Shown piece after piece: positions 5,685 to 63,225 of a DNA stretch of 64,000 nucleotides (positions within the stretch are counted from its first letter, which is position 1; each line of letters opens with the position of its first letter). The stretch is from an uncultured Bacteroidota bacterium (GTDB lineage Bacteria > Bacteroidota > Bacteroidia > Bacteroidales > VadinHA17), in assembly GCA_903844815.1 (NCBI GenBank), contig CAIMVD010000101.1:4220-68219 (forward strand), read 5' to 3'. Both the position numbers and the translations under genes were made by a program. Under the pieces are notes generated by a model. The model saw only the letters and a program-made list of their open reading frames with translations, was not told where the DNA came from and searched no databases.

Positions 5685-5746
5685 ACAGGCTTCAGGCTTC
5701 AGGAAAAATACCCTGCAGCCTGAAGCCCGAAGCCTGTAGCCCCTAG
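5685..5746. terminator. Bidirectional hairpin between convergent hypB and hyaD, built from AGGCT(T/A/G)C heptamers
   Basis: caggcttcaggcttcagg (5686-5703) pairs 17/18 with cctgaagcccgaagcctg (5719-5736). The last heptamer contains the hyaD stop. Confidence 0.7.
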
Positions 5747-6216: not shown

Positions 6217-6251
6217 GAATTCAGTTTACAGTTTAATACCCTTGTTCAGAT

Positions 6252-40337: not shown

Positions 40338-41351
40338 TTAAATAATTTCTTTAAGTTTCACAGGTCTGCTCTCCAGATATGATTTTTTCGCAGCAATAGC
40401 AATTGCTACAGACATAAGTCCGTCGTAACCCGAAACGGGAAGAACCAGATTATTAATAATAGCGTTGCAAAATATTTTCATCTCATTAGCATAAGCTTCA
40501 AGATACCTGTCCATGAAGAAATTCAGAGGCAGGGCACCGTGAACTCCATCGCTACTGTAGAACCGGTGATTATCAGGAAAATTATTATCAGCACTGGCCA
40601 TACCTTTCGATCCGAATATTTCAACCCTCTGGTCGTAACCATAAACAGCTTTCCTGCTATTGTCAATCACTCCGATGGCTCCATTCTCAAAGGATAATGT
40701 AATAATTGCCGTATCAACGTCACCAGCCCTGCCTATTTCAGGATCTACAAGTACAGCAGCCTTTGTAAAGACCTCTGTAACCTCACTGCCGGCAATATAG
40801 CGGGCCATATCGAAATCATGAATTGTCATGTCCATAAACATTCCACCCGATACTGCGCTGTATTTGGCCGGAGGTGGTGCCGGGTCACGCGAAGTAATTT
40901 TAAGTATATGAGGTTCACCGATCTTTCCAGCTACAACCATCTGTTTAATTTTAAGAAAGTTAGGATCAAACCTCCGGTTAAAACCTACCATAAGTTTTAC
41001 GCCTGCCGATTCTACTGCCATTAAAGCCCCTTTTATAATCTCAAGCGACAGGTCAACAGGTTTTTCGCAAAAGATGTGCTTCCCGGCTTTTGCGGCATCA
41101 ACGATAATTTGGGCATGAGTGTCAGTAGATGAACATATTACAATGGCATCCACTCCGGAATGATTAATTACATCCAAATAGTTGCTATAGACTGATTTTA
41201 TGCCGAATTGTCCCGCAACCTCCTTTGCCGAATCAAGGTTTACATCGGCTACGGCAATAACTTCTGCCTGAGGTACATTTTGAACCAGAGTCGCAATGTG
41301 CACCTTACCTATGCGACCTGTTCCGATAACTCCAAGATTGATTTTTTCCAT
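40338..41351 (-). CDS. iolG: myo-Inositol 2-dehydrogenase
   Basis: GTGRIG, CEKPVDL, VGFNRRFDP, TSRDPAPP, DMTIHDFD and GYDQRVE. Confidence 0.93.
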   Translation of the reverse strand: MEKINLGVIGTGRIGKVHIATLVQNVPQAEVIAVADVNLDSAKEVAGQFGIKSVYSNYLDVINHSGVDAIVICSSTDTHAQIIVDAAKAGKHIFCEKPVDLSLEIIKGALMAVESAGVKLMVGFNRRFDPNFLKIKQMVVAGKIGEPHILKITSRDPAPPPAKYSAVSGGMFMDMTIHDFDMARYIAGSEVTEVFTKAAVLVDPEIGRAGDVDTAIITLSFENGAIGVIDNSRKAVYGYDQRVEIFGSKGMASADNNFPDNHRFYSSDGVHGALPLNFFMDRYLEAYANEMKIFCNAIINNLVLPVSGYDGLMSVAIAIAAKKSYLESRPVKLKEII

Positions 41352-41385: not shown

Positions 41386-42285
41386 TTATAAGCTCAATGA
41401 TTTAAGGTAATTACGATTCCTGCCGGCACAAATTTCAGGATTTCCCATCCCGGGAAGCACATCCTGCTCCACGACTATCCATCCCGAGTATTCCTGATCA
41501 CGAAGTTCCTTTACTATTGCCGGAAAATCTACAGCGCCTTTTCCAAGTTCACAAAAAACTCCGCTGCCTACCGATTTGAAATAGTCCCAGCCTTCATTTC
41601 TTGATTGGTCTGCGATTTCAGGATGGCAATCCTTAAAATGAATATGCCATATCCTGCCATAATGATTCTTAAGCGCTGAAAGAGGATCGCCTCCGCCAAA
41701 CATATAATGGCCCATATCAAGTACAAGCCCTACAAGCAAAGGATCAGTGTATTCAAGAAGCTTGTCTATCTCAGCAGGTGTTTCAACATACCCTGCACAA
41801 TGATGATGAAAGACAGTGCGCAGGCCGGTTGATTTTTTCACTTCGGCGGCTACAAGATTCGCTCCTTCGGCAAAGATCTTCCATTCTGCGTCAGAGAGGC
41901 TCATTTCAGGTGTAATCCTTCCAGCGTTTTCAGTACGCTCTTTAATAGTACCGTTTTCATCGGCTAAAACGATAAATGCATCTTTATAGCCGGCATCAGC
42001 CATTAATTTTGCCGTTTTAACAGCTGCTTCCGCACCAGCAGCATGCTTTGATTTATCCTTCAGAAAAACCGGGACAAAGGCACCAACCATTGACAAATTT
42101 CTTTTTTCAAGTTCCGATTTCAGTTCTGAAGGAACAACCGGCATGAAACCCCAGTCTCCAAGTTCACTTCCCTCATAACCTGTATCGCGGATCTCATCAA
42201 GAACCTGGTCATAAGTGGCTGCTTTGCCTTCAAGATCAAATTCCAGGACGCCCCAGGAACATGGGGCATTAGCTATTTTTATCAT
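41386..42285 (-). CDS. iolE: Inosose dehydratase-like TIM-barrel protein
   Basis: ANAPCSWG, ELGDWGF, FHHH, DMGH, HIHFKD, FCELGKG and VVEQD; located in an iol operon. Confidence 0.85.
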   Translation of the reverse strand: MIKIANAPCSWGVLEFDLEGKAATYDQVLDEIRDTGYEGSELGDWGFMPVVPSELKSELEKRNLSMVGAFVPVFLKDKSKHAAGAEAAVKTAKLMADAGYKDAFIVLADENGTIKERTENAGRITPEMSLSDAEWKIFAEGANLVAAEVKKSTGLRTVFHHHCAGYVETPAEIDKLLEYTDPLLVGLVLDMGHYMFGGGDPLSALKNHYGRIWHIHFKDCHPEIADQSRNEGWDYFKSVGSGVFCELGKGAVDFPAIVKELRDQEYSGWIVVEQDVLPGMGNPEICAGRNRNYLKSLSL

Positions 42286-42315: not shown

Positions 42316-43788
42316 TCAGAATTTTCTGCTCCACTCATCATGCCAGCGCTCAATGACAACCTTTGTCTGGGTATAGAACTCAATTGCATGCCCCGATTGT
42401 CCGTGCAGATCACCGAAGAAACTCTCTTTCCATCCGCTAAAGGGAAAGAAAGCCATCGGAGCCGCAATACCTATGTTTATCCCGATATTTCCTGCCAGCG
42501 CGTCGTGACGGAACTTCCTTGCTGCGGATCCGCTCCTTGTAAAGATGCATGCTGAATTTCCAAAACGGCTTTTATTGATTATCTCAATGGCAGCGTCCAG
42601 AGATGAGACATTTATTATTGTCAGTACCGGTCCGAAAATCTCGGTATTGTACAATTCACCATCCGGATCGACATTAGTCAGAACGGTTGGACCAATGAAG
42701 TTACCTTTTTCCAGGCCCGGGACAGAAATATTTCTGCCGTCGAGCAATAGGCGTGCACCTTCGGCAACACCTTTCTGTACTAGTTTTTCAATTCGTTCCT
42801 TGCTTTCAGGTGAAATCACCGGGCCCATTTCAGTCTCAGGCGACAATCCGTCGCCAGTCTTCTTCGACCGGGCAGCCTCTAAGATCTTTTCAGTAAAAAT
42901 TTCACCGGCACTACCCACTGTGATCACAACCGAAGCAGCCAGGCATCTCTGTCCGGCACATCCGAAAGCACTGTCGGCAATGATTCTGACGGTGGTTTCA
43001 ACATCGGCATCGGGCATCACCACAACAGGGTTTTTTGCACCGCCCTGAGCCTGAACGCGCTTGTTATATTTGACTCCGGTCTGGTAGATATATTTTGCCA
43101 CAGGTGAAGATCCCACAAAACTGATTGCTGGCACAAGCGGATTTTCGAGAATTGCATCTACAGTCTCCCTGCCACCGTGAACGAGGTTCAGCACACCCTT
43201 AGGAAGGTCCAGACCTTCAAAAAGTTCAAATATCCGGGCCATGGTCAGGGGAACTTTTTCCGAAGGCTTTACAATAAAAGTATTACCTGTAGCAATGGCA
43301 TAAGGCATGAACCAGAAAGGTATCATCACCGGAAAGTTAAAGGGCGATATACAAGCCCCGACGCCAAGCGGCTGACGTATATAGAACTCGTCTATACCTC
43401 GTGCAATATCTTCTGAAAAATCGCTCTGCATGAGTTTCGGAATGCCACAGGCAACTTCAATATTCTCAACGGCTCGTGTGATTTCAGCCTTTGACTCACC
43501 AAGTGTCTTCCCGCATTCCCTGGTGCATATTTCGGCAATCTCATCACCTTTAGCTTCAAGTATCTGCTTCATTTTAAAAAGATACTGAATCCTCTGCAAA
43601 GCAGGAGTATTTCGCCATGCAGGCCAGGCTTCATGAGCTTTTTCAGCAGCAATAATCACATCCTTCCCCGATCCTGCCGGGACCAGGGCAAGAAGCTGAC
43701 CTGTTGCAGGATTGATTACGTCGAGATATCCGGAACCGAGCGAATCAACCCATTCTCCGTTAATATAATTTTTAAGTTTAAGTGCCAT
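42316..43788 (-). CDS. iolA: CoA-acylating (methyl)malonate-semialdehyde dehydrogenase
   Basis: PFNFPVMIP, KPSEKVP, FVGSSPVA, QAQGGAKN, GCAGQRCLA and FFGDLH. Confidence 0.95.
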   Translation of the reverse strand: MALKLKNYINGEWVDSLGSGYLDVINPATGQLLALVPAGSGKDVIIAAEKAHEAWPAWRNTPALQRIQYLFKMKQILEAKGDEIAEICTRECGKTLGESKAEITRAVENIEVACGIPKLMQSDFSEDIARGIDEFYIRQPLGVGACISPFNFPVMIPFWFMPYAIATGNTFIVKPSEKVPLTMARIFELFEGLDLPKGVLNLVHGGRETVDAILENPLVPAISFVGSSPVAKYIYQTGVKYNKRVQAQGGAKNPVVVMPDADVETTVRIIADSAFGCAGQRCLAASVVITVGSAGEIFTEKILEAARSKKTGDGLSPETEMGPVISPESKERIEKLVQKGVAEGARLLLDGRNISVPGLEKGNFIGPTVLTNVDPDGELYNTEIFGPVLTIINVSSLDAAIEIINKSRFGNSACIFTRSGSAARKFRHDALAGNIGINIGIAAPMAFFPFSGWKESFFGDLHGQSGHAIEFYTQTKVVIERWHDEWSRKF

Positions 43789-43822: not shown

Positions 43823-45682
43823 TTAAAGGAAATACCGCTGTTTCTTCTTGTTCTCGGTATAAACTTCAAACGCCTTCTTAACTGTTTCAATTTCTGCAAC
43901 TTCCGAAACTGCAACTTCCCACCATGCATAGCCGGGAATACCCTTGTACAGGTCAGTCTCGATAGTAATAACTGTAGTCACTGTCTGTTTCTTTGCCTCT
44001 TCAATAGCAGATTTTAGTGAACTTATATCGTGTGCCTCAATTACGTTGGCGCCAAGGCTGCGGGCATTGCCTGCAAAATCGACCGGAAGAGTTTCACCAG
44101 TCAGTAACCCTGTTTTTTCATCGCGGTAACGGTATTTGGTACCGAAACGCTGTGACCCCACCGATTCCGATAATGCTCCAATGCTTCCATAACCGTTGTT
44201 ATTCAGAAGAATGATAATGAATTTTATCCCCTCCTGTATCGAAGTCACTAGTTCATTGTTCATCATCAGGTAGTTCCCGTCGCCAACCATTACGAATATT
44301 TCCCTGTCGGGGCAGGCCATTTTGGCTCCTATTCCGGCAGCGACTTCATATCCCATAGTAGAATATCCATATTCAAGATGGAATCCTTTGGGATCCGTTG
44401 TTCTCCATAGCTTATGCAGATCGCCGGGAAGGCTTCCTGCAGCGCAAAGAACCACATCGCGTGGCCCTGCAGCCTCATTTACAGCTCCTACAACTTCACC
44501 CTGTGTAACAGGACAGGAACCAGTGACTTTATAAAAATCACTTACCTGTTCATCCCATCTCCTGTTAAGGTCAGCTATCCTGTCAGTATATTCGGTCTGA
44601 GCATGGTAACCATCAAGCAGAACCAACAATTCTTCAAGACAGACTCTGGCATCTGCCGTCATTGGAAGAGCTGAATGTTTGAAGGAATCAAAATCGGCAA
44701 TGTTAATGTTGATAAATTTCACACCTGGATTTTGAAATGCTGTTTTGGATGCCGTTGTAAAGTCGCTGTACCTGGTGCCAATCCCTATCACAAGGTCAGC
44801 TTCGCCTGTTATCTCGTTAGCTCCAGGTGTTCCGGTTGCTCCGACTGCTCCGAGATTAGACGGATGGTTAAAAGGCAGTGACCCCTTTCCTGCAAAAGTT
44901 TCTGCAACAGGAATTCCTGTCAGATCAACAAAAGCTTTCAGTGCATCTGTAGCCTGACTGTAAATAACCCCGCCGCCGGCAATAATTACCGGCTTCTTTG
45001 AGGACCTGATCAAACCTGCGGCTTCCTTTGCAATTTCCCTGTCGGGTCGTGGCCTGGCAATCTTCCAGGTTCTTTTCCTGAAAAGCTCTTCAGGGAAATC
45101 ATAGGCCTCTGCCTGAACATCCTGTGGAATCGCAAGCGTTACTGCTCCCGTTTCGGAAGGAGAGGTCAGTACACGCATTACTTCGGGAAGAGAGGTAATC
45201 AACTGCTCCTGCCTGTTTATCCTGTCCCAGTATTTTGAAACAGGTTTAAAGCAATCATTCACTGAAATATCCTGAGTTGAAGCTGATTCCAGCTGCTGCA
45301 GTACGGGTGCCACATTCCTTCTGGCAAAAATATCACCGGGAATAATAAGCACCGGAATACGGTTTATTGTAGCACATGCTGCTCCTGTCACCATATTTGT
45401 AGCGCCAGGACCTATTGAAGAGATACAGGCGAAGGTTTGCAGACGGTTCTTCATTTTAGCATAGGCAATAGCAATATGAACCGATGCCTGCTCATTACGG
45501 GTCATATAATACCTGAAATCAGGATTTTCCATCAACCCCTCGCCTACCCCGGCAACTATTCCATGTCCGAATATGCCAAGGCAGCCTGCAAAGAACGGAT
45601 TTTCAACACCATCACATTCAACGTACTGGTTTTTCAGAAACCTTACAACCGCCTGCCCTACTGTCAATCTTATTGTTTTCAT
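43823..45682 (-). CDS. iolD: THcHDO hydrolase (ThDP-dependent ring-opening acylhydrolase)
   Basis: RLTVGQAVVRFL, GIFGHG, RNEQ, SIGPGATNM, AAGSLPGDLHKLW, EYGYSTMGYE and GDGNY. Confidence 0.95.
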   Translation of the reverse strand: MKTIRLTVGQAVVRFLKNQYVECDGVENPFFAGCLGIFGHGIVAGVGEGLMENPDFRYYMTRNEQASVHIAIAYAKMKNRLQTFACISSIGPGATNMVTGAACATINRIPVLIIPGDIFARRNVAPVLQQLESASTQDISVNDCFKPVSKYWDRINRQEQLITSLPEVMRVLTSPSETGAVTLAIPQDVQAEAYDFPEELFRKRTWKIARPRPDREIAKEAAGLIRSSKKPVIIAGGGVIYSQATDALKAFVDLTGIPVAETFAGKGSLPFNHPSNLGAVGATGTPGANEITGEADLVIGIGTRYSDFTTASKTAFQNPGVKFININIADFDSFKHSALPMTADARVCLEELLVLLDGYHAQTEYTDRIADLNRRWDEQVSDFYKVTGSCPVTQGEVVGAVNEAAGPRDVVLCAAGSLPGDLHKLWRTTDPKGFHLEYGYSTMGYEVAAGIGAKMACPDREIFVMVGDGNYLMMNNELVTSIQEGIKFIIILLNNNGYGSIGALSESVGSQRFGTKYRYRDEKTGLLTGETLPVDFAGNARSLGANVIEAHDISSLKSAIEEAKKQTVTTVITIETDLYKGIPGYAWWEVAVSEVAEIETVKKAFEVYTENKKKQRYFL

Positions 45683-45758: not shown

Positions 45759-45823
45759 TTTTTACCCCACTGCCCCCAGGGGGGTGTTCTTAAATCCCCC
45801 CTTGGGGGGTTGGGGGGTAAAAA
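45759..45823. repeat. G/C-run REP-like nested hairpin between iolB and iolD
   Basis: ttttaccccactgcccccagggggg … ccccccttggggggttggggggtaaaa. There is an outer inverted repeat, and each arm contains a C5-6/G6 hairpin. Confidence 0.75.
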
Positions 45824-45942
45824 CACAAGAATAAAAGAGTGGTATTGGTGGTAAAATATTCCTTTCATGTTTGGTAATAATATTCCTTAACTAAATGCCA
45901 TTGATTGTTTATTCATGGATAATTTAACTCGTAATTCTGTTT

Positions 45943-46839
45943 TCAGGTTTTCAGGTTCATCTCCAGTGTTACTACCGGCACCCTGGGGTCCATCGCCTTC
46001 CAGGTACCGTAGATCCACTCATGGTCAGGATCGTTGCTGCTGGCAAGGCTCTGATCGGAGCCTGCAAGGAAATTAAGATAGTAGACGTTGTAACCATGAC
46101 CGGCCACCACAGGATGGTATCCCTCAGGTATAAGTACCACATCATTGTTATGAGCCTCGGCAATCTCATCAAGCGTCCGGCTGTCATTGTATACCTTCTG
46201 GATTGCAAAGCCCCGGGGTTTGTCGATCTTATAAAAATAAATCTCCTCCAAGTCCGCTTCCTTCAGAATACCAGTAGTAGGATCTGTTTTCCTCGTATCG
46301 TGCTTGTGAGCAGGAAATGAGCTCCAGTTTCCTGAGGGAGTATAGACTTCAACGCATACAAGGTGGTTGCATGGTGAACCGGGTGGAAGGATGCTGTTGA
46401 TCTGACGGCTGGCATTATCGCCACCCCTGTATTCGATACCCAATGAATTAACGTCGGAAGGAGTCATAAGCCTGGCAGGAAAACTTTTCTCCGCAGGGCA
46501 CCAACCGCAGGCAAGGTCCAAAAGTTCTCCGGCAGCCGAAATTTCAAACTCAGTATCCGGCGGAAGGTATAAAGCATGAGGAAGGCCTGAAAAAACATTA
46601 CGCCGTGCATCAGCTGTTGTCCAACTCCCCTTCGAAGTATTGGCAAACATATTGCCGCCAAGAATGACAAAGAGGTATTCACTACTTCCGGTTTCACCCG
46701 ACCATTTTTGGCCGGGCTTTAAAGTCCTTGCAAGGAAATTCAGATTCTTCCATCCTGCTTCAGAAGAGCTAAGATGCTGGTAGATCTCTTCTCCGGGAGA
46801 AGATTTTGCCAGAACCTTACATTTTTTATCACGATTCAT
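45943..46839 (-). CDS. iolB: 5-Deoxy-glucuronate isomerase
   Basis: LVCVEVYTPSGNWSSFPAHKHD, LEEIYFY, VLIPEGYHP and YYLNFLAG. Confidence 0.95.
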   Translation of the reverse strand: MNRDKKCKVLAKSSPGEEIYQHLSSSEAGWKNLNFLARTLKPGQKWSGETGSSEYLFVILGGNMFANTSKGSWTTADARRNVFSGLPHALYLPPDTEFEISAAGELLDLACGWCPAEKSFPARLMTPSDVNSLGIEYRGGDNASRQINSILPPGSPCNHLVCVEVYTPSGNWSSFPAHKHDTRKTDPTTGILKEADLEEIYFYKIDKPRGFAIQKVYNDSRTLDEIAEAHNNDVVLIPEGYHPVVAGHGYNVYYLNFLAGSDQSLASSNDPDHEWIYGTWKAMDPRVPVVTLEMNLKT

Positions 46840-46852: not shown

Positions 46853-48661
46853 TTACCAGAAAAAATAATAGAGTGAGGCCAGTATACCGCAGATCCCTAT
46901 CGCAGCAATGTTGAAAGTCATTGACGTATGAAAAATACCGCTATGAAGGTTAATGCTCGCTGAATCTTTCTTTTTAAGAGTATTATTCAGAATCATTATG
47001 AGACCTGTAAGAATTATCATAACAATCGGCACATAAATTGCTTCAAGTGCCAGATTCCTGAGCGGATGAACAAAGAAGGCGGATATGATACCTGCAAGCA
47101 TTGCAACTGCAATAAGTTTATAGCCGATCTTAATAATTTTAATGCCTTTATTACCGTCAAAGACATTTTCAACCTTTCGTGTCTTATCCATAAGGCTCAT
47201 ACCGACCATCACGAACGAAAGAAGTATGAAGACATATCCTATCCTGAGGACGAAAGGCATTTCGGGGAAGCATATCTTCATCACCAGTCCTAGTGGGATT
47301 GTAAGCAATGCGGTCCAAAGAGCTGCTTTAGAAGAAGATTGTCTCCAAAACAGGCCACAGAAGAAGATCAGAAACTCGCCAGGATAAATGAACCCGGTAT
47401 ATTCCTGAATGTACTGGTAAGCCTGATCGAGAGATCCCAGTTGGGGAGCAATTATTGTTGAAATTGTAAGGGCAACAAGCGCCACTATCTGACCTACCTT
47501 CACCATCTGCCTGTCAGTAGCATTCTTATTGATGTAGCTTTTATAAATATCCATCGTAAAAATGGTAGAAGTACTATTCACAATTGAACTTATTGAAGAG
47601 ACAGCCGCAGCCGCAATAGCAGCGAATGAAAGACCTGTAATACCAACCGGTACAATATTCCGGATAAGCCATGGATAGGCTTCATCGGATTTTCCAAGTT
47701 TTGCCCCTAATGCAAAGACAGCTATACCCGGGATTACAACCAAAAGCGGGATTAAAAGTTTCAGATAGCCGGCAAATACAACTCCAAGCTGGGCTTCCCT
47801 TATTGTTTTTCCTGCAAGCCCCCTTTGAATAATGAATTGATTGAATCCCCAGAAGCTAAGATTGGTAAGCCACATCGAACCAAGTACTACACCAAGACCA
47901 GGAAGATCTGAAAAGGCGTCTTTGAGACCACCTTTCCCATCAGGGGCAAAGAGAGTTCCCTTAGAAATTATCATATGAAATTTCTGCGGAGCTCTGCTTA
48001 TCAATTCGTTAAATCCGGCTAAAACTCCGTGACCATCGCTTAAGGCATTAAGAGCAAATCCGGTTGTAATAAGGCCTCCAATTATCAAAACAATTACATT
48101 TATTACATCTGTCCAGGCAACTGCTTTCATTCCGCCCCATAATGAGTAGAGTGCCGAAAATAAAGAAAAGCCTATAATCCCGTAAATCAATGGTATCCCG
48201 ATGATTCGTTCCATTGCCAGAGCACCCAGATAAATAACCGCAGTCATGTTTACAAAAATGTAAACGAGGATCCAGAAGACTGCAAAAACCGTACTCACCC
48301 TTTTATCATACCGGTCCGAAAGAAACTGCGGCATCGTAAATATGCCCTTCTCAATGAAGACAGGGAGGAAATACTTAGCTACAAATATCAGACAAATGGC
48401 AGCAATCCACTCATAAGCGGCGATTGCCAGACCTATCGCATAACCCGACCCCGACATAGCAATGAAATGCTCTGCCGAAATATTTGCTGCCAGGAGTGTT
48501 GAACCGATAGCCCACCAGGGGAGCGAACGTCCGGCCAGAAAATAGTCATCCGAAGTCCTCTGTTCTCCTTTTTTCTTGCGGGAAACCCATAGACCTACGC
48601 CTACAATGATTAAGGCATAAACAATAAAAATAATCCAGTCGAGTAAAGCAAATTCTTTCAA
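46853..48661 (-). CDS. Sodium:solute symporter (vSGLT-type), probable inositol uptake
   Basis: YFLAGRSLPWWAIG…ANISAEHF, AYEW, WGFNQFIIQR, AAAVSSISS and YIQEYTG. Confidence 0.9.
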   Translation of the reverse strand: MKEFALLDWIIFIVYALIIVGVGLWVSRKKKGEQRTSDDYFLAGRSLPWWAIGSTLLAANISAEHFIAMSGSGYAIGLAIAAYEWIAAICLIFVAKYFLPVFIEKGIFTMPQFLSDRYDKRVSTVFAVFWILVYIFVNMTAVIYLGALAMERIIGIPLIYGIIGFSLFSALYSLWGGMKAVAWTDVINVIVLIIGGLITTGFALNALSDGHGVLAGFNELISRAPQKFHMIISKGTLFAPDGKGGLKDAFSDLPGLGVVLGSMWLTNLSFWGFNQFIIQRGLAGKTIREAQLGVVFAGYLKLLIPLLVVIPGIAVFALGAKLGKSDEAYPWLIRNIVPVGITGLSFAAIAAAAVSSISSIVNSTSTIFTMDIYKSYINKNATDRQMVKVGQIVALVALTISTIIAPQLGSLDQAYQYIQEYTGFIYPGEFLIFFCGLFWRQSSSKAALWTALLTIPLGLVMKICFPEMPFVLRIGYVFILLSFVMVGMSLMDKTRKVENVFDGNKGIKIIKIGYKLIAVAMLAGIISAFFVHPLRNLALEAIYVPIVMIILTGLIMILNNTLKKKDSASINLHSGIFHTSMTFNIAAIGICGILASLYYFFW

Positions 48662-48679: not shown

Positions 48680-49786
48680 TTAATCCGGTACAATAAGCAT
48701 CATCTCCCGCATTTTTGCTGTCAGGTTTGCGGTTGCCTGTGAAAATTGGGTAAGGGTCATAACCGTAGCCCCAAAACCATCAAACTCTTCTATTGTCATC
48801 CCGTCTTCATGGTATGCACGGCGAAAATCAGTGAATTTTTTTTCAAGTTCCTCAATAATTGCCTTACCAACAGGCACATCCATACGATTTTCAACACTGA
48901 CATCCGATGCGTTATACCGTTTTTGCCATTGATACGGAGGAGATATTACCACATCACCTCCTATAAATTCCGACCAGTGAAGGTGATTCCTGAACGCAGC
49001 GCTTAAAAGCCTCAGGCGATAACCTCTCTCCCTGAATATTGCATAAGCTTTTTTCATCACTGCAACGCCCGCCCAATCGAAGATATGAGGATTTGCGATA
49101 ATATTCCTTTTATCAGCAACATGCCGCAACCAGTCGTCAAGCCTTCCTACCATCAGGGTACAAACCGGCCCCATGGAGCTAATATCCTTACCCTCTTTCT
49201 CGCGCCTGGTCAATCCCCTTTCAACAGCCTCGGCAACTGCTATTGCCTGCGGGAGGGTAAAGCTAACGGTTGCGTTTATGCTCACCCCCAGGTAAGTAGC
49301 CTCCTCAATGGCCTTTACCCCGGCTTTTGTTACCGGAATTTTTACTATCATATTAGGAGCCAGCTGACTGAAATGAACCGCCTGCTTTACGATTTTGTCA
49401 GTATCACGGTATAATCTCGGATCGGTCTGAATAGAAAGACGCCCGTTGCGTCCTTTTTCCCTGTCAAAAACCGGCTTTAGGACACCAGCGGCTTTAACCG
49501 ACATGGCCTCAATAAGTTTCCACGCTACATCATCTTCGGAATATGCAGGATTATCATTAATGATCTGAATAATCGTATCCTTCCATTTATCCCACTCCTG
49601 TTTAAGAACGTTCCATACTATGACCGGATTGCAGGTTGCTCCATTAGCTCCATGCTCAATTGAATACATAAGCTCCTCAATTGAACATGAATCATTCCAC
49701 AGAACTGTGGGAGTGCTCTGCGTCATTTTATGAAGAGGGCTCTTGTAATTCATCTTCTGATTCAGTTCATCACTAATAATATCCAT
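48680..49786 (-). CDS. Transaldolase-fold class I (Schiff-base) enzyme with an atypical active site
   Basis: LWNDS, ATCNPV, RLSIQTDPRL, IVKIP (K149), INATVSF, LMVGRLDD and AAFRN align with TalB motifs. Alternative start at 49753. Confidence 0.9.
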   Translation of the reverse strand: MDIISDELNQKMNYKSPLHKMTQSTPTVLWNDSCSIEELMYSIEHGANGATCNPVIVWNVLKQEWDKWKDTIIQIINDNPAYSEDDVAWKLIEAMSVKAAGVLKPVFDREKGRNGRLSIQTDPRLYRDTDKIVKQAVHFSQLAPNMIVKIPVTKAGVKAIEEATYLGVSINATVSFTLPQAIAVAEAVERGLTRREKEGKDISSMGPVCTLMVGRLDDWLRHVADKRNIIANPHIFDWAGVAVMKKAYAIFRERGYRLRLLSAAFRNHLHWSEFIGGDVVISPPYQWQKRYNASDVSVENRMDVPVGKAIIEELEKKFTDFRRAYHEDGMTIEEFDGFGATVMTLTQFSQATANLTAKMREMMLIVPD

Positions 49787-50112: not shown

Positions 50113-50259
50113 GACTGTCAAAAAAGTCCTCCGTGGTCCTCAGTGGCACCTCTGTGGTCCTCTGTGAAAGTTCTTAACAGTTTGTTACACAGAGATCCAC
50201 AGAGAAGGCACGGAGATCCACAGAGGCCTGAAGTTAAAATTCGTGCTTTTTAGACAGCC
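50113..50259. mobile_element. MITE-like element of about 147 bp containing a four-unit hairpin
   Basis: Ends gactgtcaaaaaag and ctttttagacagcc form a 12/14 inverted repeat. Internal arms of four 10-nt units lie at 50128-50168 and 50187-50226. No clear target-site duplication. Confidence 0.45.
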
Positions 50260-50310: not shown

Positions 50311-53217
50311 TCAAAAAATGACCTCAATGAATTTTACCTCAAATGGTTTAAGAGTCACTGACGAGAGCTTCTGCCCTATCTGAACACCAAGCGTATTAAC
50401 CTCCGTAATCCCCGAAACTGATAAATCAGGCAATGCCGACGATATTTTTACTTCTGCCGGCTTTCCGTCAGTTTCCCTGAAATGCAGCAATATAGTCCTC
50501 TCCTTTTTAAACACAGGACGTGTATTAACAAGGAGGGCATTTTCAGAACCCTCAATATTCAGGGTTTTGAGGCTGAAATCCTTCAGCTTATTCTCTCCTG
50601 CCGGAAAGGTTCTTGTAAGAAAAGGATTTCGTTCGCCCCATGAATATTTTGCAGCGAAGGAATTTGAGGTATCGCGAGTGGAAGTAATCTGGTAGCTCCA
50701 TGTGAATGCGCCTTCCTGAAAGGCTCTGAAGTTGGTGAACCAGTAATTATTCATGACGTAGGAATAGAGCCATGCCTTGCCTGCCTTTGGGTTCCTTTCG
50801 TATTTCCCAAGGTTGAAATCGCTAAACTGCCATAAGGGCGCCTCGTTGCTAACAACTATTATTTGTCCTGTTTTGCCTCTTACTGCCACAAAGTTCTGAA
50901 CAGTATTCCAATCGGTTGATGAGCCAGGCAACTGATCTCCCTGCGACAATGTCCCCCCGATTGTTTCGAAGACAATCCGCGATTGCGGCAGGGTGAAAGG
51001 GAAAGCCACATACAGAGCTTCCGGAGAAGTTACAATTTCCTTGTTTGCACTGAAAACGAACTCAGCCTTTTTTGAGTTTTTGTAAAGACGTATTTCGACT
51101 TCAACTCCTTTCGGATTTTCCAGCTTCCCCGCGGTAAATCCGTCGAGATCTGCACCAATTTTTATGCTTTCCCATACCTGTCCGGATTCTCCGGCTTCTA
51201 CCCTAACATTCCTCACAGTTGTATGTGTCAGAGCCATCGAATCACGGTTCGGAACCGTTTCATGAACAAGCTGACCGATCAGATAAGGATTATTATGGTC
51301 AATAAGATCGGTACCAAGATCCTTATCAAAAAGACCACTGACGGCTCCGGTTTTTTTATCAACAGTAATCCTGTAATATTGGTTTTCAAGGATCTCAATG
51401 CCGGAAGAAACCTGGTTAACCTGAGGTTCCTGTGAGTCGCCTGTCTCAACTTTCAGGGCTTTAAAGCCTAACGCGGGCACCTCTTTTACATCAAGCATCC
51501 AATAGGCTCCTTCCGAACGCCTTGTAAGCATCTGAGAGGGAACTTCAGCACCCGTAGAAAGATCGATAAGCCTCACCTTTCTATTCAATGGAAGTATCTG
51601 GCCGTCAATAAAAAGCTTCACATTACCTGATCGCTTCCACCCCATCGGGTTCACGACATATATTACCGGGAATTCTGCCTTAGGAAGAAATTGCTGAAAC
51701 CTTGCATTAGCCTCTTCATTGAGAAGGGTAACCTGTTTAAGCGCCTCCCATGCATAAGATCCTTTCATGAGCCACTGTTTTGTAGTATTCTCCGAAAAGG
51801 GACGATCGATACTCTCATCGGCCCCGGAAGTATGCTCATCGAAGAAGATTGCATTTTCGTTGATATGAGCTATTTTCTCTTCGGTCAACGGACTAAGCTC
51901 GCCTTTCAACATCGAGACCATTGCAAAAAGAGCCTCATCGGTTTGTAAAAGATTCTGGGTCTTTCTTACCTCGGCTGTTTCGCGTGATGAGGAACCAAAG
52001 CCGTCGGTCCACCAGTCGGGCCATGCTTTCCTGTAGACAGGCAGGCTTGCAGAATAATTCTTCTGAACATATTCAGGAAATTCGCTTGCCAGGGCGAGCC
52101 TGAGTTTTGGAGATTCATACTTTGAATTCCAATCCTCAACTACCTTGCAGGCAGCCGTTGAAGGAGGTGCATTATCGGTCCAGTAGCCAGAAAACTGAAT
52201 CCCGATTTTATCAAAAGGATATCCCTTCGAATCGATGTCGGCGATATGATCGAGCAATTTATATTCATTTAATGCCTTGCTGTGTATCCCGTAAAAATTA
52301 CCGGTATGGTAATGGTCGGCCCTGAAGGCAAGCAGTCTCTCACCGGAGGGAGCCTCCCACCAGAAGGCAGTAGGTTTGTCGAAGGGAAGTACCGACCTGG
52401 TCTCATTAATGCCCATTATCAGGTATTTTACCCCTGTATTCTTAAAATAATCGGGCATGCACCAGGCTATACCATTCACATCGTTCTGCATGGCGCTCGT
52501 GACAGGAATACCCTGAGCAACAAGTTCCTTTAGGGGCTGAAGAAAATCGAACATAATGTTTTCATCGGTGATCTCGGCCATATTTGCGAACATTGCAGTC
52601 ACCTCAATACGGCCTTCGGCAATCCTTTTCTTCAACCTTTCGATCTGGTATTTTGGCCTGGTGCGCATGAACTCACGTGTTACCCAGGCCGATTCGCAGG
52701 TCCATCTGAATTTGCTGTCATCAGGCAGGTTATCGGTCTGGTCGCAATAATCAAGGGCATAGTCGATATACCTTATCTGTTCTGCAAGTATTTCCGACTG
52801 GGGCCTCGTATAACCGATATCGGTATGGGAATGCTGTACAAATAATATCTCCCATTTTTTGGGTGGGATGAGCTGAAAAGGGATCTTAACCTCTGCATTC
52901 CTGTTGACTCTTACAGAAATTGTTAACTTTTCAGGTTTGCTTACAGCAGGGACAGTTAACAGGAATTTATTCTTCTCTGTGTTAAAATCAGAAGAAAGAA
53001 CCTGTTTTCCTGAGATTGATATTACAACATTTCCCATATCAGGGGATTTAATTTCAGCCAGAATCTGCTGATATGATTTCCCTCCCTCTTTAAAGAGAAC
53101 AGGTGCATTCTTGAATCCGACAAATGTTTCGTCTTTAACCTGACCATATACAGGCATTGCAGCACACAGCAGCAGAAATATCATGATAGCTTCGGGAAGT
53201 ACTCTTTTCTTCATCAT
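50311..53217 (-). CDS. Secreted GH38-like glycoside hydrolase (alpha-mannosidase-like)
   Basis: Signal peptide, HSHTDIGYT, FRWTCES, MQNDVNG…W and W…WTDG; GH38-type middle and C-terminal beta domains. Confidence 0.8.
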   Translation of the reverse strand: MMKKRVLPEAIMIFLLLCAAMPVYGQVKDETFVGFKNAPVLFKEGGKSYQQILAEIKSPDMGNVVISISGKQVLSSDFNTEKNKFLLTVPAVSKPEKLTISVRVNRNAEVKIPFQLIPPKKWEILFVQHSHTDIGYTRPQSEILAEQIRYIDYALDYCDQTDNLPDDSKFRWTCESAWVTREFMRTRPKYQIERLKKRIAEGRIEVTAMFANMAEITDENIMFDFLQPLKELVAQGIPVTSAMQNDVNGIAWCMPDYFKNTGVKYLIMGINETRSVLPFDKPTAFWWEAPSGERLLAFRADHYHTGNFYGIHSKALNEYKLLDHIADIDSKGYPFDKIGIQFSGYWTDNAPPSTAACKVVEDWNSKYESPKLRLALASEFPEYVQKNYSASLPVYRKAWPDWWTDGFGSSSRETAEVRKTQNLLQTDEALFAMVSMLKGELSPLTEEKIAHINENAIFFDEHTSGADESIDRPFSENTTKQWLMKGSYAWEALKQVTLLNEEANARFQQFLPKAEFPVIYVVNPMGWKRSGNVKLFIDGQILPLNRKVRLIDLSTGAEVPSQMLTRRSEGAYWMLDVKEVPALGFKALKVETGDSQEPQVNQVSSGIEILENQYYRITVDKKTGAVSGLFDKDLGTDLIDHNNPYLIGQLVHETVPNRDSMALTHTTVRNVRVEAGESGQVWESIKIGADLDGFTAGKLENPKGVEVEIRLYKNSKKAEFVFSANKEIVTSPEALYVAFPFTLPQSRIVFETIGGTLSQGDQLPGSSTDWNTVQNFVAVRGKTGQIIVVSNEAPLWQFSDFNLGKYERNPKAGKAWLYSYVMNNYWFTNFRAFQEGAFTWSYQITSTRDTSNSFAAKYSWGERNPFLTRTFPAGENKLKDFSLKTLNIEGSENALLVNTRPVFKKERTILLHFRETDGKPAEVKISSALPDLSVSGITEVNTLGVQIGQKLSSVTLKPFEVKFIEVIF

Positions 53218-56969: not shown

Positions 56970-57890
56970 ATGAAGCCATTTTATCAGAAACTGGCAGTTG
57001 CTCCAACGCAATCAGTATTATTTTATAATGAAGAAAAACCTCATTTTACCGTTCAGTGGCACTATCATCCGGAGATTGAGATTCTCTTCGTTGTAAAAAG
57101 CTCAGGTTTATGTTATGTGGGCGATGGAATACATCGTTTCACAGAAGGCGAGATCAGCATTATCGGCGAGAATGTACCTCACTGGTGGAAAAGCGATGCA
57201 AGGTATCTTGATCCCAACTACACTCATGGTATCAAAGCCCAGATAATTCAATTCAAGAAGGAGATCTTTGATTCCAATTTCATAAACCTTCCTGAGATGA
57301 CGGCCATAAAGGGGCTGATAGGCAAATCGCAAAGGGGAATCCAGTTCAGCGGAAAATGCAGGAAAATGCTCGGGGACCAGATACAGAAGATCTTCCGGCT
57401 TTCCGGCTTAAGGAGAATCACCGAGCTGATTATCCTGCTGAATATGATGGCAAATGCCGAAGAATACGATTACCACTCCAGTATAGGGTATTCCAGGATT
57501 GTTAACTCCTACGATTTTTCCCGATTCAACATTATTCATGAATACATAATCCGAAACTTCGCAAAGCCAATAAAACTCGAAGACATTGCTGCGAAAGCAA
57601 ACATATGTCCCACAGCATTCTGCAGGTATTTCAAACAGCAAACGGGCCGGACATTTGTCTCGTTTCTGAACGAGATCAGGATCGGTTATGCATGCAAGCT
57701 AATGATCGAAGAAAAACTTCCCGTTTCAATAGCCTGCAGTGAAAGCGGTTTCAACAACCTGGCCCATTTCAATAAATTATTCAAAAGGTTTTTTGGCATG
57801 AGCCCCACCGAATACCTGCGGTCGTACCATCTCAGGGAAAAACCTGTAATGGAATATTCAAAAATGGGTTTTTTAGCTCAGCATGAATGA
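56970..57890 (+). CDS. AraC family transcriptional regulator (cupin plus HTH)
   Basis: WHYHPEIEI cupin; IAAKANICPTAFCRYFK and GFNNLAHFNKLFKR HTHs. Confidence 0.95.
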   Translation: MKPFYQKLAVAPTQSVLFYNEEKPHFTVQWHYHPEIEILFVVKSSGLCYVGDGIHRFTEGEISIIGENVPHWWKSDARYLDPNYTHGIKAQIIQFKKEIFDSNFINLPEMTAIKGLIGKSQRGIQFSGKCRKMLGDQIQKIFRLSGLRRITELIILLNMMANAEEYDYHSSIGYSRIVNSYDFSRFNIIHEYIIRNFAKPIKLEDIAAKANICPTAFCRYFKQQTGRTFVSFLNEIRIGYACKLMIEEKLPVSIACSESGFNNLAHFNKLFKRFFGMSPTEYLRSYHLREKPVMEYSKMGFLAQHE

Positions 57891-57927: not shown

Positions 57928-59091
57928 TCATTTTGCAGGTTGAAGCAGACCTGATATTTTCCTGAAGACATCAGTATTTTCATAAATTCCTGCGAACTCC
58001 TCAGCGCCCGGCCCATAGGCATAAACAGGTACCAAAATACCCGAATGGCCTGTTGTCGAAAAATTACCTCTAACGGTTCCTGTACTTATGCTTCCATCTA
58101 GAAGGGTAAGTCCCCCGGTTTCATGGTCGGCAAGAATAATAACAAGGGTATGTCCGTCTTTTTCAGCCCACTGCATAACCTTTCCAATAGTCCTGTCAAA
58201 ATCAAACACCTCTTCCACAAGGGCAGGCATATCATTTGAATGGCCGCAATCGTCGATCCTTGAGCCCTCGTACATTGCAAAAAAGCCTTTGCTATTCCGG
58301 CTCAACAGGCTGAGACTATGCATTACTGCCCTGGCAAACAAGTCTCCACGCTCAGGGGCAAGGGGCAACTGACCCTCTTCAGGAACAGAAAAAACCTTGC
58401 CATAGGTTATCCTTTCAGTCTCTTCCCAGGTAGTGCAAACCTGATATCCCTTATTCTTCATTTCATTAAGAAGGTCACGCTTATCGGTTCTCTTGTTGAA
58501 TTTCTCCCGTCCTGCCCCAAAAATATAGTCGACATTGCAATTCAGATAATCAGCAGCTATTTCCTCCTCCCTGTCGCGGTCAACGTTATTTGCACAAAAT
58601 ACCGAAGGCGTGGCATCCGACAAATTGCAGGTGACTACAATACCTGTCGACAACCCGCCTGCATGGGCAAGGTCGGTCAGGGAATTGAGGGGTTTCCCCT
58701 CCGTATCTACTGAAATACAATGGTAATTTGTCTTGCTCCCGGTAGCCATAGCAGTTCCTGCAGCACCAGAATCGGTTATCAGCTTATCGGCACACCATGT
58801 TCTTGAAAATCCTGAATATGTGCAATTGTCGATATTCAGGCTGCCATGATTGGCCACCCATGCTGCAGAAACCTGAACAAGTCCCATACCGTCGCCAATC
58901 ATGAGAATAACATTTTTTACCGATTTCCCTTTTACCTTTTTTACTTTTACGGTTTCATAGGGCTTTGTTACAGTGTATAAAGACTTATCAGGCAATGATG
59001 CAGGCACTGTCTGGCACACGAGCAGCTTTGCCGGCAGAAGTAATGCAAAAATCAGAGGAATAATCTGAAAATAAATCTTTTTGCTTCTCAT
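57928..59091 (-). CDS. Alkaline phosphatase (PhoA-like), secreted
   Basis: IGDGMG, TDSGAAG (catalytic Ser), EGSRIDDCGH, ADHETGG and GHSG. The Met at 59091 precedes a signal peptide; the ORF track start at 59139 overlaps the upstream stop. Confidence 0.92.
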   Translation of the reverse strand: MRSKKIYFQIIPLIFALLLPAKLLVCQTVPASLPDKSLYTVTKPYETVKVKKVKGKSVKNVILMIGDGMGLVQVSAAWVANHGSLNIDNCTYSGFSRTWCADKLITDSGAAGTAMATGSKTNYHCISVDTEGKPLNSLTDLAHAGGLSTGIVVTCNLSDATPSVFCANNVDRDREEEIAADYLNCNVDYIFGAGREKFNKRTDKRDLLNEMKNKGYQVCTTWEETERITYGKVFSVPEEGQLPLAPERGDLFARAVMHSLSLLSRNSKGFFAMYEGSRIDDCGHSNDMPALVEEVFDFDRTIGKVMQWAEKDGHTLVIILADHETGGLTLLDGSISTGTVRGNFSTTGHSGILVPVYAYGPGAEEFAGIYENTDVFRKISGLLQPAK

Positions 59092-59135
59092 ACTATAGTT
59101 CTGGTAGTTAATAACGAAATCATCAATCCGGATAA

Positions 59136-59918
59136 TCATTTATTTTTGTTATTAAGAAATCCTGCCAATTCATTTACACGGTCGGTATTAATAAAGTCCA
59201 CCCCAAGGCCTTCAAATGTTTTCCATGCATTTTCGCCATCGGGAGCATTCCAGAACCTTATTTTCCTTTTCAGATCATGGACTGAATCAATTACATGCAC
59301 AAGCCTAGATTTGTCGGCTGCCGGCATCTCACCTTCGCCTCTCCATTTGGTGAATACTGCCAGGTTTTCGCTGAAAAGGGGAACTCTTTCAAGCTGTTTC
59401 TGGTTATAATTCCCGTTAAGAAGGCCATCATATAAGATAAATTCAGGGTAGGAGGTGAATCCGGAAGGCTCTGGCCTGTTTCCGGAAATTACCACCATTA
59501 CTCCGTTTGGGTTGACTTTAAGATCGAAAACATCAGGATATTGGCCCAGCTTCTTAGCCAGTATCGAAAGCGTCGGCTCTGCCAGGGTCTTCAGATCGAT
59601 CAGCAACTGGAAAGTCCCCGGAAAGTCGTACCAGGCCTTCCCCTTATTGTGCCTGAAGAGTTTTACTATTGGATTTATGTATAACGCGTCGAGAGTAAGT
59701 TCAGGCTTTATCTGTGATCTGTCGTGGGCCACCAGTAATTCGCCGTTAACCGCCCAGATATCAGCCTCTATTGATCCGAAGTGGCTATAATATGCCAGCC
59801 AGAAAGGTATATCATTACTGTAGTCATTGTGCGAATGAGCATTCAGTGTCGAATACTGGGCAGGTGCTGTTGCGAAAAAGCAACTAAGAATGATGATGGA
59901 AAAAAGAATTCTTTTCAT
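59136..59918 (-). CDS. Secreted PI-PLC/GDPD-like phosphodiesterase (HSHNDY family)
   Basis: Signal peptide, NAHSHNDY, SIEADIW, LLVAHD, LLIDLK, RFW and VDFINTD. Confidence 0.8.
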   Translation of the reverse strand: MKRILFSIIILSCFFATAPAQYSTLNAHSHNDYSNDIPFWLAYYSHFGSIEADIWAVNGELLVAHDRSQIKPELTLDALYINPIVKLFRHNKGKAWYDFPGTFQLLIDLKTLAEPTLSILAKKLGQYPDVFDLKVNPNGVMVVISGNRPEPSGFTSYPEFILYDGLLNGNYNQKQLERVPLFSENLAVFTKWRGEGEMPAADKSRLVHVIDSVHDLKRKIRFWNAPDGENAWKTFEGLGVDFINTDRVNELAGFLNNKNK

Positions 59919-59937
59919 ATCAGTACTGTTTTTTGTA

Positions 59938-62900: not shown

Positions 62901-63225
62901 TATTTCCCGATGAGCCTTCGGGATAACCGCTTTTATGGTTAAGACAGCTGAAAAACAGGATAGAGGTGTCGTTATAGTCATATCCGGCGGATGGAATTGT
63001 CCTTGTTTCGGGTGAAAGCTGAATGTATCCGAAGGGGGCGACTGCACCAGGATAAGTCCCGCCTTCGGACCCCCATCGTGAAAACGTCCTGGTTTTTGTC
63101 GTTCCGATAAAGGGATTAACATACTTAAGAACATCTTCCTGTGAAAAGAGGAATGATGTCCATTGTGTTAACAGGCAAATCAGCAAAAGGTATCGTGAAA
63201 CTTTAACGGGCACTATGTATCTCAT
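59938..63225 (-). CDS. GH92 alpha-mannosidase with C-terminal Ig-like and LamG/ConA-like domains
   Basis: YVNPFIGT, FYTALYH, FSPWDTFRT, SRT-like VTRTVEY, EGDKW, NEP and GNDDLGSMSSWFVF; C-terminal WHHIAGV LamG-type motif. Confidence 0.92.
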   Translation of the reverse strand: MRYIVPVKVSRYLLLICLLTQWTSFLFSQEDVLKYVNPFIGTTKTRTFSRWGSEGGTYPGAVAPFGYIQLSPETRTIPSAGYDYNDTSILFFSCLNHKSGYPEGSSGNIHIMPVSDTSGFQPGKYCRPFSHSQEKSEPGFYSVILNDDGTSVEATASVRAGMFRITFPAGVKPSIFIGNIGKLTVRSDSVIEGQLFNTKIIFNRKPELVRKTGDGNILTFFPSSGNNNILLLKISASTVSQVSTQKNLDAEAPGWSFESFRKSNRDRWAKELKVIEVEDTSTINKTVFYTALYHSLLLPYVISDVEGRYMGAGGKIFRTKGAYQYGSFSPWDTFRTLHPLLCILEPERQRDMILSLLSTYEQTGRLPKGPMTGNHVIPIIVDSWMKGVRGFDSTLAFNAMKSMTDESNSGSDFIAYSKAGYVPSSYSESVTRTVEYAYNDWALAVFAGEVMNNGAEYKRLIQRSLNYRNLIDPATLFLVPRDGSDFISESACFGYKEGDKWSYSLFVPHNPVDLINLSGGQKDFAERLDFALENGKIPFDNEPVLHVPYLFNYSGAPYQTQKWVRKIMSSHYTAFPSGLPGNDDLGSMSSWFVFSAMGFFPVCPGRPVYDIGSPLFKKVTIHFHNGKKLVIRSENNGSENVYVKSFSLNGTDQGKPWILHPDLARGGEIVFSMTDKPASAMLAFSRDEIPSLTKNPASFRIRDFNCTKPSAEPGEKCMVGFSYLNSGSFGAKTFRLYIDGKEYSAKSVLADSGVVKYDSIECRFFPVGKRSYTIDDLEEKNIEIVKNEMAPAASPEITDLEITPLLRVNNNSEFSYSVRNAGGFRDSMKTQVFLDDSLISSIIVDLRPGELKKITHTVRIAEAGIHLMRAGSESVRVKTYLLNTDSKIIDIKFPNDRSGKKVDDRSGLQNDAIIIRDVEAPPKNGTGLKTDGGCYAEFENSPSASISGNNLTVMAWIFPSVKNSGLSDIITQGDYNVIQTSGNRSISFFAGGWGRGSCTVMLPSGWNNKWHHIAGVCEGRILRIYIDGKEEGMVDTGENSILATTAKWNLGRNEEFPDSRFFNGSIDCFKLFSEPLTPGEIEKEMKIDSPLTKIK

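Follow-up and report, generated by a model that had tools for sequence, protein, structure and literature searches.

The stretch of DNA analyzed here (hereafter, “the window”) spans 64,000 nucleotides (nt; positions 4,220 to 68,219 of the forward strand of contig CAIMVD010000101.1, assembly GCA_903844815.1) of a lake-water Bacteroidales genome, whose assembly amounts to 6.37 Mb and is 97.8% complete, and it carries a seven-gene inositol operon headed by a gene for a transaldolase-fold protein of 368 amino acids (aa; P0001), which is the subject of this work. All seven genes are co-directional and follow the order transaldolase-like gene, sodium:solute symporter (SSF family) gene, iolB, iolD, iolA, iolE and iolG (Table 1), with the gaps between them being 13–34 nt long, except for the 260 nt that separate iolB from iolD. 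The plus-strand reading of the interval occupied by the transaldolase-like gene was rejected due to the many stops encountered there. The symporter gene, which begins 18 nt past the transaldolase-like one, is syntenic in loci L011, L012, L016, L017 and L018, and the iolE-like gene is syntenic with iolE in all of the related loci.

Table 1. Features of the window that are discussed in the text, with their coordinates and the evidence behind each assignment.
Feature	Position	Strand	Evidence or remark
Gln-type transaldolase-fold gene, first in operon	48680-49786	-	Open reading frame and translation; Pfam TAL_FSA; AlphaFold2 model; Foldseek
Codon CAG, Gln120	49427-49429	-	Position of TalB Glu96 and FsaA Gln59
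Codon AAA, Lys149, predicted Schiff-base lysine	49340-49342	-	TalB Lys132, FsaA Lys85
Codon ATG, Met212	49151-49153	-	Position of TalB Phe178 and FsaA Tyr131
Arg215, second anion-site Arg	49142-49144	-	TalB Arg181
Ala264-Phe265-Arg266	48989-48997	-	TalB Ser226-Phe227-Arg228; anion-site Ser lost, Arg kept
Sodium:solute symporter, probable inositol importer	46853-48661	-	Pfam SSF, 1.1e-68; TIGR00813
iolB, 5-deoxy-glucuronate isomerase	45943-46839	-	TIGR04378, 304 bits against a cut-off of 205
iolD, trihydroxycyclohexane-1,2-dione hydrolase	43823-45682	-	TIGR04377, 896.8 bits against a cut-off of 715
iolA/mmsA, CoA-acylating malonate-semialdehyde dehydrogenase	42316-43788	-	TIGR01722, 561.9 bits against a cut-off of 448.5
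iolE-like inosose dehydratase gene	41386-42285	-	TIGR04379, 212 bits, under the cut-off of 290; Pfam AP_endonuc_2
iolG, inositol 2-dehydrogenase, last in operon	40338-41351	-	TIGR04380, 460.8 bits against a cut-off of 355
AraC/cupin regulator, candidate iol regulator (inferred)	56970-57890	+	Pfam HTH_18, HTH_AraC and Cupin_2

The catabolism of myo-inositol (IolG-E-D-B-C-J-A) is a textbook pathway, and as IolB makes 5-dehydro-2-deoxy-D-gluconate (DKG) and IolA consumes malonate semialdehyde, the sole step left without an assigned enzyme is the one leading from DKG to malonate semialdehyde. The genome holds no IolC scoring above the cut-off (the top score being 108 bits, against the required 300), no match to the DUF2090 (PF09863) aldolase anywhere, no Dak1 dihydroxyacetone kinase and, when searched by tblastn with Bacteroidales IolC and IolJ, merely paralogues that are 25–31% identical. 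With no gene for the customary kinase or aldolase, and with an unusual transaldolase-like gene in their stead, the operon suggests a putative shortcut by a single enzyme that has not been described so far. For the step in question, the GapMind paper gives only IolJ and IolC-DUF2090; in these routes, the aldolase acting after IolC is either a metal enzyme of class II or a class I enzyme of the DeoC/LacD-like kind (DUF2090) (PMC9007349).

The affiliation of P0001 with the transaldolase superfamily is clear from its match to Pfam TAL_FSA (PF00923; residues 29–308, 132.9 bits against a cut-off of 27, E-value of 1.9e-38), and its AlphaFold2 model (predicted local distance difference test score, pLDDT, of 91; predicted template modeling score, pTM, of 0.89) shows strands and helices alternating as expected. 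The Foldseek search with this model returned template modeling (TM) scores of 0.80 to 3r5e, 0.78 to 3clm and 0.68 to TalB, with a probability of 1.00 each, at identities as low as 17–22%, and, among the proteins of solved structure, P0001 comes closest to the long transaldolases from Corynebacterium glutamicum (3r5e, E-value of 7.6e-17) and Neisseria gonorrhoeae. No NCBIfam transaldolase or fructose-6-phosphate aldolase (FSA) model, however, reaches its curated cut-off on the protein, all ten that touched it remaining far below (e.g., 124 bits against 367 for NF002881, which scored best, 87 against 234 for TIGR00876, 66 against 396 for TIGR00874, and 42.4 against 245.95 for the FSA model TIGR00875).

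The active-site residues were compared by aligning P0001 with TalB and FsaA of E. coli K-12 (NC_000913) using MAFFT. K149 falls on K132 of TalB and K85 of FsaA, and, with this conserved Lys, P0001 is predicted to act through a Schiff base, as a class I enzyme with the transaldolase fold; further TalB equivalences are D32 to D17, N53 to N35, N171/T173 to N154/T156, R215 to R181 and R266 to R228. Q120 aligns with TalB E96 and FsaA Q59, M212 with TalB F178 and FsaA Y131, and A264 with TalB S226, so the phosphate site formed by Arg181, Ser226 and Arg228 in TalB has kept both of its arginines and has had its Ser replaced by Ala264. An earlier note on this DNA, in which the protein had been aligned to TalB by hand, had claimed that it possesses neither the Glu/Phe pair of transaldolases nor the Gln/Tyr pair of FSA, and all of the residue equivalences given there were reproduced by MAFFT, with the HMMER pairwise alignments to solved transaldolases being in agreement (GRLSIQTDPRL opposite GRVSIEVDPRI, and VCTLMVGRLD opposite VASFFVSRVD). 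Within the AlphaFold2 model, Q120 and M212 end strands 116–120 and 208–212, respectively, and thus lie at the C-terminal ends, as active-site residues of a barrel should. Neither a Glu nor a Tyr is found at or beside either of the two positions. Glu96 is the general acid/base in TalB and in the Thermoplasma acidophilum transaldolase.

Across 121 homologues sharing 73–100% identity, there is no variation at Q120, M212 and A264, nor at K149, D32, R215 and R266. The search for homologues among 1.84 billion cluster representatives yielded 354 clusters at E ≤ 1e-30, and the full-length representatives, which extend down to about 32% identity, have Gln at the Glu96 position in every case (38/38), Met at the Phe178 position in most cases (28/38, the remainder having Leu, Phe, Gln, Val or Ile, and none of the 38 having Tyr), and Ala or Gly at the Ser226 position in 31 of the 38; the equivalent of the Schiff-base Lys149 is invariant in all of the family members examined. 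As a control, 60 further genomes of the phylum were drawn upon, and the 30 top-scoring TAL_FSA genes among them have Glu, Phe and Ser176 without exception (30/30), along with Ser226/Arg228 wherever the alignment extends that far; Glu occupies the TalB Glu96 position in 32 of the 33 canonical sequences, and the canonical types all keep the Ser at the Ser226 position (GASFR, AASFK, VASIR, WASTG). In the maximum-likelihood tree, the Gln-type sequences make up one clade (SH-aLRT, i.e., approximate likelihood-ratio support, of 96; stem branch of 0.88) that is separate from FSA as well as from the transaldolases of the short, classical and long types. A profile search with this clade found no solved structure inside it (the top match being the Neisseria enzyme at 128 bits), the Gln-bearing transaldolases retrieved by the fold search were all engineered (TalB E96Q, TalB E96Q/F178Y and NgTAL E93Q), and there is, thus, no ordinary characterized transaldolase with the Gln/Met signature among the solved structures. 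Judging by these alignments, the Gln120 pattern is a family trait under clear purifying selection over a deep clade, and the replacement of Ser226 by Ala or Gly across the clade would fit a re-shaped anion site. The proposal of the earlier note that Gln plus Met defines a third subfamily was thereby borne out as far as the separate clade is concerned, yet has to be amended, as it is Gln alone that defines the clade, Met being typical but not universal. Of the known catalytic-site positions, Gln120 is the only one fixed differently from the canonical enzymes, and the clade-specific conserved residues outside the known site are S33, W68, E161, R190, K245 and Y325.

The genome of the window (G000) also encodes a second transaldolase, of the Glu/Phe type, on another contig (C167; L002, 1120–2337, minus strand), which can serve the pentose phosphate pathway; this unusual protein is 405 aa long, sits on a very long branch (3.77) and has a low score of 119 bits against the Pfam model, the transaldolase found in most of the phylum's genomes that were sampled being a short one of ~220 aa that scores ~200 bits.

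The transaldolase-like gene is rare, having been found in 1 of the 401 genomes of a phylum-wide sample and in 3 of the 401 genomes of an order-wide one, the latter of which includes seven genomes with iolD. Among these seven, the transaldolase-like gene and iolC show a complementary distribution: G000, G521 and G644 have the former and lack IolC, whereas G474, G506, G511 and G531 have no transaldolase-like gene and carry, between iolB and iolD, an IolC scoring 358–376 bits (cut-off of 300). A class II ketose-bisphosphate aldolase is encoded upstream of iolB in G474, G506 and G511, and was not seen upstream of iolB on the fetched contig of G531. In five related genome loci, whose proteins are 58–84% identical to P0001, the gene invariably (5/5) lies within an iolG-E-A-D-B cluster with the symporter gene, its position being before the symporter gene, between the symporter gene and iolB, or between iolB and iolD. 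The metagenome scan contributed a further 80 loci (62–80% identity), and on the 41 of them that are at least 8 kb long, and for which the neighbors were counted, IolD was encoded in 23, IolB in 17, an IolG-like protein in 27 and an IolE-like one in 20. The search for IolC by tblastn gave zero matches in 85 loci. When the 131 neighbors that are not clear iol orthologues were assigned to Pfam families, Gfo/Idh/MocA oxidoreductases, LacI-type regulators/binding proteins and AP_endonuc_2 turned out to be the commonest, and PfkB, the class II aldolase, DUF2090, Dak and the FGGY kinases all fell outside the top 25.

In both G644 and the metagenome locus L058, the transaldolase-like gene is situated between iolB and iolD, i.e., in the exact slot that iolC occupies in the relatives. 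The gene order of L058 is otherwise that of a canonical Bacteroidales iolJ-B-C-D cluster, and upstream of its iolB there is a remnant of IolJ (5699–6340) that retains 214 of the ~303 residues and in which the GTSHG motif has become DTSRG. The His of this class II aldolase motif is a zinc ligand. Such decay is what a replacement of the kinase by the transaldolase-like enzyme predicts, because IolJ would have nothing left to act on once the kinase is gone. A link to the pathway is also seen in P0130 (L052, 686–2653), a natural fusion protein of 655 aa that begins with an IolE domain (341 bits with TIGR04379, whose cut-off is 290) and ends with a transaldolase domain of the Gln/Met/Ala type; for the distant representatives P0148, P0221, P0163 and P0130, the contigs are too short for the gene context to be read.

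From this genomic context, it is predicted that P0001 probably performs the DKG-cleaving step of myo-inositol catabolism without the involvement of a kinase. The earlier note had argued for a carboxylate substrate such as DKG from the weakened phosphate site with its two arginines, and DKG as the substrate has since gained the support of the context (an operon with iolB, iolD, iolA, iolE and iolG, no iolC, iolJ or DUF2090, and the complementarity with iolC). The chemistry, all of which we infer, would start from unphosphorylated DKG and make both IolC and IolJ unnecessary: Lys149 would form a Schiff base at the C5 keto group of DKG, the C3–C4 bond would be cleaved, and malonate semialdehyde would leave to be oxidized by the co-encoded IolA, with Arg215 and Arg266 holding the C1 carboxylate of DKG in place of the phosphate held by ordinary transaldolases. 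DKG would share the D-threo ketol head of fructose-6-phosphate and have its C1 carboxylate about where the C6 phosphate ester of the latter stands, and IolJ, as a homologue of fructose-1,6-bisphosphate aldolase, would cut the phosphorylated DKG at the same bond. The dihydroxyacetone unit remaining bound to the enzyme would most likely be passed to glyceraldehyde-3-phosphate (GAP), giving fructose-6-phosphate (or to erythrose-4-phosphate (E4P), giving sedoheptulose-7-phosphate), and the resulting activity would be that of a DKG:GAP glyceronetransferase, following the same logic as the sulfofructose transaldolase of the sulfo-TAL pathway. The full statement, i.e., that P0001 is a DKG-cleaving enzyme that also transfers the C3 unit to an acceptor, is one to which we would give somewhat less than an even chance. 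Transfer is favored over the release of free dihydroxyacetone because Met212 cannot donate the proton given by Tyr131 in FSA, because no dihydroxyacetone kinase is found in the genome or among the commonest neighbor families, and because the sulfofructose transaldolase sets a precedent for the replacement of a kinase and an aldolase: SftT, by handing the three-carbon unit of its sulfofructose substrate on to GAP or E4P, replaces the kinase and aldolase of the sulfo-Embden-Meyerhof-Parnas pathway (PMC7491151). For TalB, the exchange F178Y is known to have increased the aldolase activity 70-fold (PMC3962226). A Tyr at this position is the only residue known to make an aldolase out of a transaldolase.

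When set against the described systems, P0001 has the triosephosphate isomerase (TIM) barrel, the Schiff-base Lys and the counterparts of Asp17, Asn35, Asn154/Thr156 and both arginines in common with classical TalB (EC 2.2.1.2) and the long-type transaldolases (3r5e, 3clm), as well as an insertion after beta-5 in common with the long type, but differs from them in its Gln for Glu96, Met for Phe178 and Ala for Ser226, in falling into a separate clade and in having its gene within an inositol operon instead of with the genes of the pentose phosphate pathway. It resembles FSA (FsaA/FsaB) in having the counterpart of Gln59 and the Schiff-base Lys, and would also do so in using or forming an unphosphorylated dihydroxyacetone unit; in contrast, FSA has the acid/base Tyr131 where P0001 has Met, Ala129 where P0001 has Thr210 (Ser176 in TalB), and is a short protein of 220 aa and the decamer type. 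The likeness to SftT/SqvA (BmSF-TAL, 8bc3) would be functional, in that an anionic unphosphorylated ketose is used, a C3 acid-aldehyde is released and the ketol unit is delivered to GAP or E4P (PMC7491151). SftT, however, is of the short type and is 41.7% identical to the T. acidophilum transaldolase (PMC7491151), its structure matches P0001 only weakly and locally (E-value of 5e-6, residues 113–185), with the Gln-type clade being unrelated to it within the fold, and it acts on a sulfonate in the company of other sft genes (sulfoquinovose isomerase, sulfolactaldehyde dehydrogenase/reductase), whereas a carboxylate is proposed here and the neighbors are iol genes. The IolC plus IolJ route (as in B. 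subtilis) and the IolC-DUF2090 route occupy the position of the pathway that is proposed for P0001, turning DKG into malonate semialdehyde and a C3 unit that enters glycolysis, and they share the operon neighbors of P0001, with the iolC of the Bacteroidales relatives standing in the slot of the transaldolase-like gene of G644 and L058; these routes phosphorylate with ATP first, whereas P0001 has a different fold (PF00923) and no kinase partner.

Some of the observations weigh against the cleavage and transfer proposed for P0001, and have to be considered along with the alternatives they speak for. The position of Glu96 is occupied by Gln with no compensating Tyr apparent in the alignments, which would leave the catalytic competence of the site unexplained, and SftT probably keeps the canonical residues, given its identity to the T. 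acidophilum enzyme; if so, Gln and Met are not simply required by anionic unphosphorylated donors. Furthermore, all three of the genomes G000, G521 and G644 have a glycerol kinase, which could phosphorylate free dihydroxyacetone. The latter would suit a true, FSA-like DKG aldolase, in which the Schiff base is hydrolyzed to give free dihydroxyacetone along with malonate semialdehyde, with glycerol kinase then phosphorylating the dihydroxyacetone, unless it is reduced to glycerol. Such an aldolase would have the Gln at the Glu96 position just as FSA does, and the context evidence for DKG cleavage applies to it equally, but with the FSA Tyr131 being a Met here (and a Tyr in 0/38 of the representatives), with TalB lacking a Tyr at 178 being a poor aldolase (PMC3962226), and with Dak1 absent from the genome and Dak and FGGY not among the commonest neighbor families, we regard it as unlikely, though by no means negligible. 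The presence of both phosphate-binding arginines and of several genomic PfkB kinases weakly resembling IolC (about 108 bits) might, on the other hand, be taken to mean that only IolJ has been replaced, so that a non-orthologous kinase encoded elsewhere makes DKG-6-phosphate and the transaldolase-like enzyme acts on it as a class I aldolase or transaldolase. This we deem improbable, as there is no gene-linked kinase in the 85 loci, the slot taken over in G644 and L058 is that of iolC and not of iolJ, and the phosphate-site Ser226 is lost across the clade. Most improbable of all is that P0001 is just a paralogue of the ordinary pentose-phosphate transaldolase, carried along by the operon and with residue changes that are neutral or inactivating; the database annotation does read plain “transaldolase”, but Gln120 is fixed across a deep clade under purifying selection, every equivalog model fails (124 bits against a cut-off of 367 at the top), the genome encodes another transaldolase that does have Glu/Phe, the housekeeping enzymes of the phylum are Glu/Phe/Ser in 30/30 cases, and the distribution of the gene is complementary with that of iolC.

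The remaining alternative concerns the substrate, which could be another unphosphorylated keto-sugar or keto-acid processed beside the main route (e.g., the products of other inositol isomers or of methyl-inositols, or an IolM/N/O-type keto-gluconate), with the DKG step being left to enzymes that were not recognized. IolD does not appear within the fetched flanks of 18 of the 41 long metagenome loci, which counts against the proposed role of P0001 in general. In favor of another substrate, many soil loci pair the gene with extra Gfo/Idh/MocA and AP_endonuc_2 genes instead of iolB/iolD, and a cultivated organism, Clavibacter michiganensis subsp. insidiosus, has on its plasmid pCI3 a homologue of the Gln/Met/Ala type (L139; NZ_CP021037, 30838–31962; 53% identity) that coexists with iolC and a DeoC-type aldolase and is set apart behind a GntR regulator at the edge of the iol cluster. 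With both routes on pCI3, the enzyme is therefore not always a replacement, a universal swap of the transaldolase-like enzyme for iolC/iolJ was rejected, and the Clavibacter homologue may provide a branch parallel to the canonical one, accept a different substrate, or play a role that is additional or different. More distant Gln-type members in non-inositol settings point the same way and speak against universal replacement as well. In one example, which represents a different use of the clade, the Gln/Met/Ser-type protein (32% identity) encoded on plasmid p1 of Shinella sp. H4-D48 (L140, 66653–67873) belongs to an acetoin-dehydrogenase-like cluster, where its gene is inserted so as to part the E1 beta gene from that of E2, with triose-phosphate isomerase, a class II aldolase and a sugar ABC transporter encoded nearby. 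For the window organism and its relatives, however, there is no alternative candidate for the DKG step, the gene holds the iolC slot with IolJ decaying alongside, and IolB and IolA are retained, which leaves a side substrate with rather slim prospects there; the pCI3, Shinella and IolD-less loci do not contradict DKG cleavage by P0001 in the window organism.

A more far-reaching and rather doubtful generalization of the proposed DKG cleavage would be that the Gln-type transaldolases make up a third mechanistic class, which does without the Glu that transaldolases rely on and also without the Tyr used by FSA, with the DKG:GAP glyceronetransferase as its founding activity. The proton relay of such a class may consist of Asp32 and an ordered water, of a residue specific to the clade (such as Tyr325), or of the beta-carboxylate of the substrate itself, and the sister branches in which one or both arginines are lost would do likewise with ketoses that are neutral and unphosphorylated, in further sugar operons devoid of a kinase. 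One sub-branch (P0140, P0202, P0212 and P0234) has lost Arg181 and has Leu or Gln at the Phe178 position, three of its members (P0202, P0212 and P0234) being without Arg228 as well, and presumably acts on neutral rather than anionic substrates.

Should the role proposed for P0001 be true, the last cleavage of inositol catabolism, for which two solutions have been described (IolJ, and DUF2090 fused to IolC), would have a third and kinase-free one, and this would explain the “incomplete” scoring given by automated pathway tools and by iol surveys that demand iolC. The literature search returned no paper on a transaldolase in inositol catabolism, subscription journals being outside its coverage and prior publication thus being possible, and a large iol survey, in which the clusters were counted by iolB/C/D/E, does not mention a transaldolase in those parts of it that were consulted. 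A natural protein with both of the “transaldolase or aldolase” residues changed would, moreover, be a direct test case for the acid/base model of the fold, and biocatalysis seeks dihydroxyacetone-transferring catalysts that accept unphosphorylated, carboxylated substrates.

Regarding the regulation of the operon, the AraC/cupin protein is, by its sequence relationships, probably the inositol regulator, as its homologues (48–70% identity) are encoded directly beside iol clusters in L055 and L017, which are of the transaldolase type, and in L136, which is of the iolC type. Its gene in the window is 7 kb away from the operon, from which it is separated by a GH38 gene and a hybrid histidine kinase gene. 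A composite palindrome (50128–50226) lies between the GH38 gene and the transaldolase-like one, and is built from a pair of direct repeats of 18 nt (CCTCTGTGGTCCTCTGTG, spaced by 21 nt) that stands opposite two copies in inverted orientation; the motif CCTCTGTGGTCCTCTGTG, however, occurs in 135–350 copies on about 70–90 contigs of the genome. Similarly, the AT-rich 260-nt gap between iolB and iolD contains a G/C-rich hairpin (45770–45830; CCCCCCAAGGGGGG ... CACCCCCCTGGGGG), and CCCCCCAAGGGGGG recurs in about 143 copies on 80 contigs, constituting a second dispersed repeat family. Both palindromes were, hence, rejected as specific operators and are viewed as genome-wide dispersed repeats (the one at 50128–50226 resembling repetitive extragenic palindromic (REP) elements), and the only long gap of the operon is explained by a dispersed repeat filling it. 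A scan for sigma-70 promoters and terminators, a type of scan unsuited to Bacteroidota, gave nothing above the shuffled expectation, and Rfam had no match within the window.

The operon is flanked (50311–53217, 57928–63225 and 30680–33331) by genes for GH38 and GH92 alpha-mannosidases, a GDPD-like phosphodiesterase, an alkaline phosphatase and an 883-aa phosphoesterase-family protein. With mannosidases as well as phosphodiesterases/phosphatases as neighbors, the source of the inositol may be mannosylated inositol-phosphate lipids or glycans, and the flanking locus may, thus, target such compounds (e.g., fungal mannosylinositol phosphorylceramides (MIPC), actinobacterial phosphatidylinositol mannosides (PIM) or molecules resembling glycosylphosphatidylinositol (GPI)). 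A SusD-like gene is situated at the end of the window.

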